IMG/VR virus record: IMGVR_UViG_2671180458_000006
Direction: 5' to 3' (one strand)
DNA from: a virus
Lineage: Duplodnaviria > Heunggongvirae > Uroviricota > Caudoviricetes
DNA: 8,718 bases
Shown here: piece after piece, positions 2,224 through 4,304 of the stretch
How the letters are laid out: each line of letters starts with the position of its first letter
Position numbering within the stretch: position 1 is the first letter of the stretch
The notes under the pieces: generated by a model
What the model was told of the DNA's origin: nothing
Databases searched by the model: none
Seen by the model: only the letters and a program-made list of their open reading frames with translations
Made by a program: the position numbers and the translations under genes

Positions 2224-2418
2224 ATGCCAGAGAACAACACCAGAAAGCCGGATAAAAGTGCCACGGTACACATAGACGCCGGAACTATGGAGAAGATCGA
2301 ACGCTATCAGCAGTTCATCAAAGATAATCACCCGGGTATGCCGGTACCCACGAAAGGACAAATCACACGCAGCGCGGTTGAATACTGGTACAGGGCAACG
2401 TTAGGAGCCTGGCTATGA
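2224..2418 (+). CDS. Small protein (64 aa), possible Nu1/TerS N-terminal winged-HTH-like DNA-binding domain
   Basis: Strong SD AGGAGG (2211-2216) 7 nt before ATG 2224, so the track start at 2191 is probably too early. The stop overlaps the capsid gene ATG (ATGA 2415-2418). The translation (...MEKIERYQQFIKDNHPGMPVPTKGQITRSAVEYWYRA...) loosely parallels lambda gpNu1 residues ~16-50 (IRTIQNWQEQGMPVLRGGGKGNEVLYDSAAVIKWYAER), sharing GMPV and SA-V--WY. The similarity is weak and from memory. Confidence 0.55.
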   Translation: MPENNTRKPDKSATVHIDAGTMEKIERYQQFIKDNHPGMPVPTKGQITRSAVEYWYRATLGAWL

Positions 2419-4304
2419 AAACATGGTTTTCCATTAAGGCTATGGCTGATGTTGTCTATGTGCGCATTTATGACGAGATCGGCGGGTACGGTGTAAAAGC
2501 ATCGGCACTTACTGACGAGATCAACGCGTGCGGTAATGCGTCTGAAATCCATCTTCGCATCCATTCACCTGGTGGCGACATCTTTGAAGGGCTGGCTATC
2601 TATAACGCCCTGAAAAATCATCCGGCAAAGAAAATTGTACACATTGAAGGCATGGCGGCTTCTATGGCCTCGTTTATTGCCATGTGTGGCGATCACATCG
2701 TTATGCCTGAAAACGCGATGATGATGATACATGCCCCCCGTGGTGTTACTGCCGGAGTGTCGGGCGACGTTCGCCGCTTTGCTGACCTGATGGACAAGCT
2801 GGGCGACACGATGGCAGAAACCTACGCCGGAAGAACGGGCAGGAGCAAACAGGAAATCACCGCCATGATGGAGGCGGAAACCTGGATGGATGGCAATGAG
2901 TGTAAGGCTAACGGTTTCGCAGATGAGGTTATACCCGCGATTACAGCAATGGCCCGAATTGAATCAAAACGAATCGGAGATTTTTCAAATATGCCGGAAA
3001 AAATTAAAAGCATGATCAGCCAGAAAGCTACCAGTGGCGAACAGGAACGACTTAACGGCATCCGTGAATTGTTTGGCACGTTCAACGGAAGATATAACGA
3101 CCTGGCTATAAGTTGTCTTGCTGATTCAGAATGTAGCGTTGAGAATGCACGCGAACGCCTTTTACTCGCTATGGGTAAAGAATCAACGCCAACAAACAAA
3201 ACCACCCCCGCAAATCTTTACTACGCGTACACGGATAACGGCAACATAACCGGCGATGCAATGCGCCAGGGGCTTAATGCGCGTCTTGGTCACGAACGGG
3301 CCGAACGCGGTAATCCTTACGCCATGATGAGCCTTTTCGATATGGCACAGGCATCATTAACCCATCGTGGTATAAGCACGGGCAGCTACAGCACACGCTC
3401 GCAGATAGTAAACGCGGCATTCAACCACAGCAGCAGCGATTTTACCGATATCCTTGCTGGTGGTGCTGAAAAATCAGTGCTTGCAGGCTGGGAGCACAGC
3501 GGCGAAACATTCCGTCAGTGGACGAAAAAAGGTTCCCTTTCAAACTTTCGTGAAGCCCGCCGCGTTGGTCTGAATGGTTTCTCTACGTTAAACAAAGTGC
3601 CGGAAGGGGCAGAATATAAATACATCACCACCAGCGATCGCGGTGAACCCATCGCGCTGGCTACTTACGGGAATATTTTCAGCATTACCCGCCAGGCGAT
3701 AATCAATGATGACCTTGATCAGTTATCAACGGTGCCAATGGCTATGGGCCGTGCAGCATCAAGAACGGTGGGAAATCTGGTTAATCTGGTGCTTACAGGC
3801 AACGTAAAACTTTCTGACGGAATAGCGCTGTTTGACAAAAAACACAGCAACCTGATTGAAGCAGGACTGACAACACCGGGACTTAGTGCAGCACGTCACC
3901 TGATGCGCACACAGAAGGACAAAAATGGCGAAGTGCTGAATATTGCGCCTAAATTCCTTTTAGTTCCGGCAGCACTGGAAGATCGCGCGTTGCAGATGAT
4001 TAACTCAACCGCACCTTTCGGGGCTGATAAAAACAGCGGGATCTTTAACCCGTATCACAAGCTACTTGATATCATCGTCGATCCCCGCCTTGATGATATC
4101 AGCGAAAAACAATGGTACATGCTTTCCGCACAGGGAACGGACACAATCGAGGTGGCTTATCTTGATGGCAATGACGAGCCTTACCTTGAACAGCAGGAAG
4201 GTTTTATCGTTGACGGCGTGGCCTGGAAAGTCCGTATTGATGCAGGTGTGGCAGCTCTGGATTATCGCGGTATGGTCAAATCAGGCGGGACAGATTCACT
4301 ATGA
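2415..4304 (+). CDS. Prohead protease (ClpP/S14-like) fused to scaffold-like region and major capsid protein (HK97-fold inferred)
   Basis: 629-aa ORF. The N-terminal ~190 aa carry ClpP-like catalytic motifs: the GMAASMAS serine (Ser83, codon 2661-2663), MMIHAP histidine and a downstream Asp. The C-terminal ~330 aa have the character of a phage major capsid domain, as in protease-MCP fusions seen in prophages. SD AGGAG at 2403-2407. Confidence 0.8.
   Translation: MKTWFSIKAMADVVYVRIYDEIGGYGVKASALTDEINACGNASEIHLRIHSPGGDIFEGLAIYNALKNHPAKKIVHIEGMAASMASFIAMCGDHIVMPENAMMMIHAPRGVTAGVSGDVRRFADLMDKLGDTMAETYAGRTGRSKQEITAMMEAETWMDGNECKANGFADEVIPAITAMARIESKRIGDFSNMPEKIKSMISQKATSGEQERLNGIRELFGTFNGRYNDLAISCLADSECSVENARERLLLAMGKESTPTNKTTPANLYYAYTDNGNITGDAMRQGLNARLGHERAERGNPYAMMSLFDMAQASLTHRGISTGSYSTRSQIVNAAFNHSSSDFTDILAGGAEKSVLAGWEHSGETFRQWTKKGSLSNFREARRVGLNGFSTLNKVPEGAEYKYITTSDRGEPIALATYGNIFSITRQAIINDDLDQLSTVPMAMGRAASRTVGNLVNLVLTGNVKLSDGIALFDKKHSNLIEAGLTTPGLSAARHLMRTQKDKNGEVLNIAPKFLLVPAALEDRALQMINSTAPFGADKNSGIFNPYHKLLDIIVDPRLDDISEKQWYMLSAQGTDTIEVAYLDGNDEPYLEQQEGFIVDGVAWKVRIDAGVAALDYRGMVKSGGTDSL

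Follow-up and report, generated by a model that had tools for sequence, protein, structure and literature searches.

The window, that is, the whole 8,718-nt stretch of DNA analysed here, encodes two ClpP-like protease/capsid fusion proteins, and both open reading frames of the initial annotation, of 629 and 359 aa, are present at the positions listed in Table 1. The first lies in positions 1-4771, which form the right half of a PICI satellite of ~10.4 kb (the size between the att blocks in genome L001), and the second in the adjoining lambdoid, mEp460/cdtI-like prophage of the Qin site, hereafter the helper prophage. All satellite genes are on the plus strand, co-oriented with the helper late operon.

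Table 1. Features of the satellite and of the helper prophage in the window.
Positions	Strand	Feature	Basis
1..805	+	Satellite primase gene, 3' end (D5/P4-alpha type); start lies left of the window	Pfam Pox_D5, DUF5906
1093..1338	+	Conserved 81-aa satellite ORF, function unknown	phrog_1231, E 3e-50
1335..1757	+	Satellite single-strand DNA-binding protein (SSB)	Pfam SSB, 5e-15; 80% identical to 11capE SSB
1772..1960	+	cos-like site A, with a terminator-like hairpin before it (~1772-1795)	Direct repeat, helper match
2191..2418	+	75-aa ORF, stop overlapping the fusion-gene start, function unknown	phrog_4934, E 1.5e-50
2415..4304	+	Satellite ClpP-like prohead protease/scaffold linker/HK97-type major capsid protein fusion, 629 aa, intact	Pfam, phrog_133
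4309..4530	+	cos-like site B, with a terminator-like hairpin before it (~4309-4333)	Second repeat copy
4562..4684	+	Remnant of a 93-aa satellite ORF	phrog_1561; translations compared
4772..4783	+	attR identity block TGGATGGAAGGG, coding for W-M-E-G of TerL; satellite right end	Onset of terL homology
4772..5887	+	Helper large terminase, 3' part (gpA nuclease domain), separated from the ATPase half by the satellite	Pfam GpA_nuclease
5878..6096	+	Helper head-tail adaptor (gpW-like), 72 aa	phrog_118 'head-tail adaptor', 1.4e-37; phage equivalents
6096..7604	+	Helper portal gene (lambda family)	Pfam Phage_portal_2, 8.5e-82; start by colinearity with cdtI orf4, 1509 bp
7618..8697	+	Helper prophage protease/capsid fusion, cut after codon 358 of 652; last codon and stop IS-derived	Colinearity with cdtI, Pfam
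8693..8718	+	IS3-family insertion sequence (left end)	Phage homology stops at 8692; same junction in L006

The 629-aa satellite protein unites a protease and an HK97-type capsid domain in one polypeptide (Pfam CLP_protease, 4e-33, and Phage_capsid_4, 8e-55; phrog_133, E 6e-280), and RefSeq annotates the satellite fusion as a ClpP-like prohead protease/major capsid protein fusion. Its best match among 50,697 phage records reaches 51.6% identity at most, whereas a chromosomal PICI whose integrase is unrelated encodes a 99.5% identical protein, and a tRNA-Pro PICI a 63% identical one; the capsid cassette thus moves among PICIs with different integration modules. Each of the six PICI copies examined keeps the 1.9-kb frame intact, including those whose helper gene has been disrupted by an IS, a frameshift or an internal stop, and comparison with other satellite copies gave a dN/dS of 0.13-0.18, a value based on just 5-8 non-synonymous and 11-14 synonymous changes. 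Since the satellite fusion differs by about 50% from every phage version, it has long persisted within PICIs.

The two fusion proteins of the window (2415-4301 and 7618-8694) align in BLASTP with 47% identity and 62% positives over 345 aa (E 2e-108). The earlier estimate of roughly 50% identity along their length is correct, because the 629-aa protein is also 51% identical, end to end, to full-length phage homologues. The copies are therefore neither near-identical nor unrelated, the two alignment outcomes that would have spoken against the initial annotation. The catalytic motifs are likewise shared, as had been claimed: a Ser motif GxAASMAS, a His motif MMIH[AK]P and an Asp-holding GFAD[EQ]V are found in both proteins, where the alignment places them at the corresponding positions of solved ClpP. 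From what we know of ClpP, we take the residues of these motifs to be the catalytic ones. Between the two helper-phage lineages, the fusion proteins share 78% identity, compared with 47-51% between satellite and helper, which bears out the argument against a recent tandem duplication. In architecture, length, full colinearity and Ser/His/Asp motifs, the satellite version resembles the fusions of lambdoid phages (mEp460, cdtI, VT1-Sakai and Stx2 phages), but it is only ~51% identical to all of them, is PICI-borne rather than phage-borne, and is missing a Pro/Ala-rich linker of ~35 residues behind its protease domain.

The helper prophage's own copy directly follows the portal gene, the canonical place earlier assigned to it, and is truncated as described: its residues 1-358 match those of the 652-aa cdtI protein with 98.9% identity, after which the frame enters the IS end TGTAGTGGCACACTAAATTTGGCCAC, the source of its final codon and stop. 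Only the protease domain and the linker are left (Pfam CLP_protease alone, 3e-36). In the window, the helper fusion gene is thus destroyed by an IS3-family insertion, and the cassette copy is the only intact one there. The initial annotation had asked whether the capsid domain resumes downstream of the IS, and in L006, the closest genome with the same IS junction, it does not: beyond the identical junction lie partial transposase genes, one of which carries the label IS3 family, with IS30 interrupting them, and this IS3/IS30 composite is directly followed by a tail-fibre gene, so that the capsid C-half and tail genes have been deleted in L006. Because the capsid C-half is missing, and the tail genes too, judging by L006, the resident prophage is unable to function as a helper, and its satellite may be stranded. 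In the O157:H7 strain SS TX 313-1, by comparison, the helper looks intact and has an uninterrupted fusion of 659 aa.

Complete copies of the satellite in L001, L003 and L005 carry int, an AlpA-like HTH gene, Bro-N, YlcI, Icd-like and DUF4222 genes, primase, SSB and a late zone with the order cos, 75-aa ORF, protease-capsid fusion, cos. The window holds only the replication and late zones and attR, and we infer attL and the integration module of its element from the copies in other genomes, which are 96-98% identical. The counterpart of the window's primase in L001 is the 604-aa 'DNA primase family protein', the 81-aa ORF occupies the same position in the PICI 11capE and the other PICIs examined, and in L003, L005, L087 and L088 the annotation places the 75-aa ORF ahead of the fusion gene. 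The cassette had been described as cos-flanked, and a 112-nt direct repeat indeed lies on either side of it (1772-1883 and 4309-4420), both copies matching the helper region upstream of terS: cos-like site A is 92% identical to this region of the O111:H8 helper prophage (L005 2298-2463) and site B 86% identical to that of the O121/O157 helper prophages (L001 13087-13283). The hairpins before the two sites were confirmed by folding (-18.6 kcal/mol, z -3.9, before A; -15.1 kcal/mol, z -2.1, before B); a promoter/terminator consensus scan of 1700-4800 called neither of these plus-strand hairpins and gave fewer promoter-like sites than in shuffles, and Rfam at gathering thresholds returned zero RNA families for the whole window. 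The remnant ORF lacks ~444 bp of the other copies, window positions 4614 to 4644 corresponding to 24614 to 25088 of L001. The HTH protein of the satellite is weakly AlpA-like (phrog_66 at 9e-7; AlpA family in one RefSeq record) and has no Pfam match. The element thus has the make-up of a Gram-negative PICI, with a size of ~10.4 kb (10-15 kb is usual), co-directional int and alpA at one end, its own primase/replication module, no lysis or tail genes, and a helper-matching packaging signal in the form of two predicted cos sites (86-92% identical to helper). A P4-like satellite was set aside, as the annotation shows no sid-, psu- or delta-like genes and the genes follow a PICI-like order.

The right end of the satellite is sharply defined, since homology to satellite-free terL begins exactly at 4772. 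From there to 5887, the window is 98.6% identical to the cdtI terL from nt 1717 of L002 and matches positions 6-294 of the GpA_nuclease profile (6e-84), with the insertion point at about profile position 5. The insertion site is a ~12-bp block, TGGATGGA(A/G)GGG, which codes for F-W-M-E-G of TerL, where the ATPase domain meets the nuclease domain, and the attL/attR identity blocks of L001, L003 and L005 overlap the block of the window. The halves of terL lie on both sides of the element in these three genomes, and in the window the 3' half stands directly after attR. In silico removal of the element from two other genomes gave uninterrupted TerL frames of 704 and 707 aa, both of which align end to end with the cdtI TerL, and the satellite-free prophage of L006 matches positions 4772-8718 of the window with 99.975% identity, that is, one mismatch, IS junction included. 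The satellite integrase (WP_000114064.1; Arm-DNA-bind_3 plus Phage_integrase) occurs with the same site in three helper lineages, in O121-like, O157:H7 and O111:H8 strains, and the int-plus-attL segment was found in 83 of 5426 complete E. coli genomes, adjoining terL in every match listed. The closest integrase seen is that of a tRNA-Pro PICI (39%), and a scan of one genome per species yielded relatives of at most 40% identity, in marine gammaproteobacteria and Pasteurellaceae, none with a nearby terL or capsid fusion. As a separate observation, the TerL of L001 is chimeric.

We consider it very probable that the two genes represent a PICI satellite nested in the terL of a lambdoid prophage and the prophage's own, IS-cut head gene, lying side by side because the satellite integrated site-specifically into terL. 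The identity of the parts, the site specificity, the restoration of terL in silico, the filled/empty pair and the movement of the capsid cassette among PICIs are direct observations. The two fusion genes are accordingly homologues on two nested mobile elements, and the term 'paralogous' does not apply to copies that belong to a satellite and a prophage and are not products of duplication. The proposal of two juxtaposed head modules of different origin holds as to the different origins and the juxtaposition; however, the cassette copy is the single late-zone capsid gene of a PICI, and the two genes came together by site-specific satellite integration, not by illegitimate fusion of modules. Two same-strand homologues within 6 kb might also suggest that the prophage head gene was recently duplicated, in tandem or as part of a segment, or that an assembly artefact doubled it, but the copies share just 47-51% identity, the first is flanked by satellite replication genes instead of head genes and has its near-identical counterpart in a chromosomal PICI elsewhere, and the same arrangement recurs in 62 complete genomes. 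The divergence and gene context thus already refute duplication, whose probability we regard as negligible. Given the IS at the right-hand edge and the decayed state of the prophage, one could further suppose that illegitimate or IS-mediated recombination joined two prophages or head modules and that a site-specific satellite played no part. Such a fusion is scarcely credible in view of a junction formed by a short identity block, in the same codons of three helper lineages and with the same integrase adjoining, of the exact rebuilding of terL by in silico excision, of the near-identical empty site, and of inserted DNA in PICI order that shows no prophage hallmarks, lacking tail, lysis and cI/Q genes.

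The remaining alternatives concern the class of the element and what its fusion gene does. With cos sites and a single polypeptide that combines protease, scaffold and major capsid protein, the element could be a capsid-forming PICI (cf-PICI) that makes its own capsid and packaging machine and takes only tails from the helper; such elements are known in E. coli and likewise encode their own capsid protein and protease (Alqurainy et al., bioRxiv 10.1101/2022.09.08.507074). The full set for making and filling capsids described there contrasts with the protease-capsid fusion alone within the att bounds here, and the three complete copies have no portal, large or small terminase, or head-tail connector genes. 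The portal, terminase and connectors of a helper would therefore still be needed, and we judge a cf-PICI very unlikely. The gene might instead be a neutral passenger left over from late-gene capture, with no role in the life cycle: deletion of the capsid homologue of EcCICFT073 gave no relief of phage interference (PMC6092414), on the basis of which the capsid gene may be dispensable, and Tommasini et al. described such genes as dispensable for transfer, and capture followed by gene loss (PMC10111431). The intact frame in every PICI copy examined, even beside broken helper copies, the retained catalytic motifs, the dN/dS well below 1 and the long persistence in PICIs point the other way, and we view a neutral passenger as unlikely, though well worth keeping in mind.

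For the nested satellite, which a tyrosine integrase has inserted into terL in the orientation of the late operon, the life cycle can be sketched by analogy with 11capE, EcCICFT073 and SaPIbov5. On induction, antitermination-proficient late transcription of the helper would read through the embedded element, whose excision would repair terL. The satellite would replicate from its own primase/ori and be packaged by the helper terminase via the satellite cos sites. Its protease-scaffold-capsid polyprotein may supply shells independent of the helper capsid gene, or may co-assemble with the helper capsid protein and bias capsid size or assembly toward the satellite. Induction, excision and packaging of the element in the window, and the role of its fusion protein, are thus drawn from these relatives.

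The closest known counterpart is the founder of the helper-embedded PICIs (HE-PICIs), Eco567.11capE of E. coli NRG857c, for which the concept, the excision kinetics and late-gene capture have been described (Tommasini, Mageeney & Williams 2023; PMC10111431). As in that family, a PICI of ~10-11 kb sits co-oriented inside a lambdoid late gene, which it disrupts with no replacement sequence in attP; the complete copies show the four ordered zones (int/AlpA, Bro, replication, late); a helper head-gene homologue and helper-like cos are carried; and helpers are often truncated (PMC10111431). The primase and SSB are 82% and 80% identical to those of 11capE and stand in the same order, and, as judged by sequence, there is a precise att block, a target restored on in silico excision and a natural empty site. 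In contrast, the integrase, though of the same domain architecture, is only 24.7% identical to that of 11capE and scores 86 bits, whereas the HE-PICI integrases form a single clade found at 400 bits or more to the 11capE integrase (PMC10111431). The HE-PICI attP is marked by a doubled TGTATTGC motif, which lies 81 bp from its centre on the upstream side and 132 bp on the downstream side (PMC10111431). A search of the window and L001 that allowed as many as 3 mismatches gave no match to it close to either att arm. The target also differs: the boundary between ATPase and nuclease in a gpA-type terminase lies outside the 14 published late-gene sites, among which the A-gene ones are only Terminase_1:132 and :246, and the string 'gpa' is missing from all supplementary files of that paper (PMC10111431). 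Finally, the late cargo here is a protease-capsid fusion, compared with a lambda E-type capsid and a decoration protein in 11capE. A direct-repeat search of 11capE gave no cos repeat pair at the threshold used, and the two-cos layout is thus not shared by all family members.

The model for cos-type PICIs of Gram-negative bacteria, EcCICFT073 (Fillol-Salom et al. 2018, PMC6092414), shares the int-alpA-primase organization, the capsid homologue and two cos sites, and is mobilised by lambdoid cos phages; both of its cos sites are functional (PMC6092414), whereas those of the present element are predicted. It differs in being located apart from its helper prophage, in having a lambda E-like capsid homologue with a separate decoration protein, and in a cosB region unlike that of the phage, while each cos copy here resembles a helper cos flank. 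SaPIbov5 is also a cos-type satellite with a homologue of the helper major capsid protein, Ccm (Hawkins et al. 2021, PMC8569155), but in this Gram-positive system there is no protease fusion, and pentamer occupancy and forced small T=4 capsids were established by cryo-EM (PMC8569155), whereas the present case is argued from sequence. On the function of PICI-borne protease-capsid fusions, a search of the literature yielded nothing specific.

The element is thus a helper-embedded PICI, ordinary in kind and a modest new member. The finding is largely explained, since the nested satellite/helper arrangement was described in 2023, and no new mechanism is needed for a satellite that carries a helper-capsid homologue and is nested in a late gene. 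We put forward more tentatively a possible second, independent origin of embedding, marked by an unrelated integrase, the TerL hinge as target, cos flanks that match two different helper lineages and a self-contained protease-scaffold-capsid polyprotein, in which the usual PICI replication and late modules may have joined an integrase outside the published 'single clade'. With such an origin, helper packaging would stay off until the satellite leaves, because the integrase targets the ATPase/nuclease hinge; the element would be intermediate between classical and capsid-forming PICIs, and capsids could be built or reshaped even where the resident helper capsid gene has decayed. Since identical copies sit in different prophages, embedded satellites could also act as crossover points that reshuffle the arms of helper prophages, as the chimeric terminase of L001 hints.

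For the HE-PICIs, these results place the embedded lifestyle outside the integrase clade and the attP motif thought to define the family, and add a new target site, at which the terminase is divided between its two catalytic domains. The natural filled/empty pair differs by a single base in 3.9 kb, and because the one-polypeptide fusion circulates among PICIs with different integration modules, it offers a convenient system for the role of satellite capsid homologues. The nested satellite also explains the recurrent finding of 'two capsid genes and a split terminase' in STEC prophages, which should not be taken for assembly errors or random decay.

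We compared the two protease/capsid fusion genes, whose coordinates are collected in the table below. The initial annotation had described two diverged homologues, and indeed BLASTP aligned the long and short proteins at 47% identity over 345 residues (E 2e-108). Of the Pfam domains CLP_protease and Phage_capsid_4, the long protein has both and the short one just the former. The motifs GxAASMAS, MMIH[AK]P and GFAD[EQ]V, which from our knowledge of ClpP we take to hold the catalytic Ser, His and Asp, are kept in both, as seen in a four-way alignment with full-length phage homologues, and match the corresponding positions in solved ClpP, in agreement with the shared catalytic motifs described before. 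The short ORF matches residues 1–358 of the 652-aa protein of phage cdtI at 98.9% identity, and its phage homology ends at 8692; the last 26 bases of the window, TGTAGTGGCACACTAAATTTGGCCAC, are an IS end that cuts the ORF and gives it its final codon and stop, so that only the cassette copy is intact, as had been claimed. Compared with the proteins of both helper lineages, the satellite protein is short of a Pro/Ala-rich linker of about 35 residues between the protease domain and a scaffold-like region. The catalytic His codons of each protease gene fall in a sequence one mismatch away from ATGATGATCCAT, which has been published as the identity block of the HE-PICI (helper-embedded PICI) integration site C:CLP_protease:110; judging from this motif, which matches the window four times at ≤2 mismatches where chance would give 1.0, either gene could be a target for another embedded satellite.

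Coordinates of features in the window and in related loci
Feature	Position	Extent	Source or comparison
Long fusion ORF	2415–4304	629 aa	ORF listing
Short fusion ORF	conserved part from ATG 7618, end 8697		ORF listing
Missing linker	2997–3030 region	residues about 195–205 of the 629-aa fusion	
ATGATGATCCAT, one-mismatch copies	2721–2732 and 7909–7920		
Cos-like repeat, copies A and B	1772–1883 and 4309–4420	112 nt	
Flanks compared, copies A and B	1772–1960 and 4309–4530		helper cos regions
Remnant of the 93-aa ORF (phrog_1561)	4562–4684	40 codons	
Satellite gap	4614–4644	about 444 bp	L001 24614–25088
attR, in-frame ATG	4775		
IS cutting the helper capsid gene	8693–8718		L006 12007–14480
attL stop codon, L001	about 14795–14810		
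terL halves, L001	13797–14801 and 25211–26329		L002 (phage cdtI) and L003
DUF1441 gene, L087 (tRNA-Pro PICI)	15510–15995		

The long gene is preceded by the 3′ end of a primase gene of D5/P4-alpha type, an 81-aa ORF, a gene for SSB and a 75-aa ORF. Downstream, about 470 bp of AT-rich non-coding DNA is followed by a gpA-type large terminase ORF with the nuclease domain only, a gpW-like adaptor gene, a lambda-family portal gene and then the truncated fusion gene, whose place after the portal gene was thus correctly assigned. Homology to phage genomes (cdtI, mEp460, Tritos and others) covers window 4768–8692 at 98% and does not extend left of 4768. The whole arrangement was found again in 62 complete E. 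coli genomes. In three full loci, L001 (O121-like), L003 (O157:H7) and L005 (O111:H8), the annotated 5′ half of terL is followed by genes for a tyrosine integrase, a small HTH protein, Bro-N, YlcI/YnfO, an Icd-like protein, several small ORFs, DUF4222, primase, a small ORF, SSB and the protease/capsid fusion, and then by the 3′ half of terL and the remainder of the lambdoid late operon. The satellite in the window lacks about 444 bp of the other copies, a gap that takes out the greater part of a conserved 93-aa ORF lying after cos B and before attR.

The satellite ends attL and attR have a short identity block in common (TTCTGGATG in L001, TTGGATG in L003 and TTGGATGGAGGG in L005), which spans codons F-W-M-E-G and sits between the GpA_ATPase and GpA_nuclease domains. 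Joining the terL halves at this block restored reading frames of 704 and 707 codons without interruption, each colinear end to end with the 700-aa cdtI TerL. Furthermore, terL is intact in L006, a Qin-type prophage at ydfJ in strain FHI_NMBU_11, which is 99.975% identical to window 4772–8718 (1 mismatch in 3947 bp), with homology starting exactly at the att block; the same decayed prophage thus occurs with and without the insert. The identical 33-base phage/IS junction is present in four complete genomes, that of L006 among them, and the int-plus-attL segment in 83 of 5426 complete E. coli genomes, with terL adjacent in every match listed. In L001 and L003, attL reads TTC TGG ATG TAG, placing a stop right after the core, so that the helper would make at most an ATPase-only TerL fragment while the satellite is integrated. 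At attR, the in-frame ATG of F-W-M-E-G stands at the head of an ORF for the nuclease domain alone, which lacks an obvious ribosome-binding site. The terL halves of L001 are 72% (5′) and 98.6% (3′) identical to cdtI, indicating different ancestry, and L001 and L003 have the left flank and satellite in common while their right sides differ (78%). Embedded satellites may act as crossover points that reshuffle the arms of helper prophages.

Judged by gene order and content, the insert is a Gram-negative PICI, specifically an HE-PICI-like element. HE-PICIs were defined by Tommasini, Mageeney and Williams (PMC10111431), and the founder 11capE (strain NRG857c) has the order int, HTH, YlcI, Icd-like, DUF4222, primase, small ORF, SSB and capsid gene. 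The present primase and SSB are 82% and 80% identical to those of 11capE, and, as in the structural definition, the element is embedded and co-oriented in a late gene, with four zones, a precise att block and helper-like cos sites. In contrast, it departs from the 2023 set in three features that served to delimit that set. Its integrase is 24.7% identical (86 bits) to that of 11capE, the reference for the 400-bit inclusion cutoff of the 2023 set, and its site is outside the 14 published ones, among which the A-gene sites fall in the Terminase_1 profile only (PMC10111431). The doubled TGTATTGC HE-PICI motif was not found in either att arm, nor does a "gpA" label occur in the supplements of that paper, whose authors expected more HE-PICIs beyond their integrase-based search. 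They also reported that the late genes of Gram-negative PICIs most often include a capsid gene, that truncation is frequent in HE-PICI helpers, and that late-gene capture can provide a backup copy (PMC10111431). A capsid-forming PICI (cf-PICI) was ruled out, as portal, terminase and connector genes are absent from the L001, L003 and L005 elements.

We then investigated the origin of the satellite capsid gene. When the 629-aa protein was compared with 50,697 phage records, identity reached 51.6% at most; the Stx/O157-type and mEp460/cdtI-type helper lineages stand at equal distance from it, although their fusions share 78% identity with one another. A chromosomal PICI located between yljB/cspD and clpS, with an integrase unrelated to the present one (23% identity), carries a 99.5%-identical fusion, and the tRNA-Pro PICI carries a 63% variant. 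The ceiling in phages together with these copies in other PICIs points to a long-standing PICI module and bears out the earlier argument against recent duplication; on these comparisons, satellites have passed the gene among themselves, and it was not copied recently from the resident helper. The two genes do have different origins, as proposed earlier, and what brought them together is a PICI nested in its helper prophage. The satellite gene is intact in every copy examined (pairwise dN/dS 0.13–0.18, from few substitutions), and three of four embedded loci have a damaged helper copy: the IS interrupts it in the window, an internal stop together with IS600 in L001, and a frameshift in L005. 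In the tRNA-Pro PICI, the 63%-identical fusion is followed by a DUF1441 gene, of a family that in helper prophages lies directly upstream of terL, where the small terminase subunit would be. Some PICI relatives may carry part of the packaging machinery too.

The cos-flanked cassette described earlier proved real: each copy of the direct repeat can be aligned to the stretch that precedes terS in helper prophages and is itself directly preceded by a hairpin plus U-run. Copy A has a flank most similar to the O111-type (O111:H8) helper cos region (92%), and copy B one most similar to that of the O121/O157-type helper (86%). Both copies have the core GGGTCCTCCTGG..GGGGCGGGCGGCGCGGAAAAAGGCG in common, and their right-hand flanks differ. 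One satellite may thus carry packaging signals for two terminase specificities. In the model E. coli PICI EcCICFT073, too, two cos sites are functional and a capsid homologue is present (PMC6092414).

The IS cutting the helper capsid gene belongs to the IS3 family, and its end resembles that of IS911. In L006 this element is itself split by an IS30, with a tail-fibre gene directly after, and the capsid C-half and tail genes are gone, which implies that an IS-associated deletion removed the capsid C-half and most tail genes of this Qin-type prophage. The capsid domain of the second copy, which was to be sought past the IS, does not resume in L006, and the same would hold for the window if its source matches L006 downstream. 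The resident prophage in the window is without head and, judging by L006, tail functions, so that for this satellite copy to move another helper would have to arrive.

A working model can build on what was observed: the parts, the site, an insertion that can be reversed in silico, and a filled/empty pair that occurs naturally. By analogy with 11capE and EcCICFT073, induction of a competent helper would let late transcription run into the co-oriented satellite, Int and the AlpA-like protein would excise it and repair terL, replication would proceed from its own primase and origin, and its cos sites would be recognised by the helper terminase. In the least certain step, the fusion protein would form capsid shells independent of the helper capsid gene or bias capsid assembly. 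The conservation evidence leads us to favour such an active role, as does the example of SaPIbov5 Ccm, a capsid homologue of a satellite, which takes up the pentamer positions and makes the capsids small (PMC8569155). Against this, deletion of the EcCICFT073 capsid homologue left interference with the phage unrelieved (PMC6092414), and such genes are dispensable for transfer according to Tommasini et al. (PMC10111431).

Overall, the explanation, a PICI satellite nested in its own helper prophage, is already known in kind. The novelty is limited to an additional site group, whose integrase is unrelated, and to a protease–capsid fusion as cargo.
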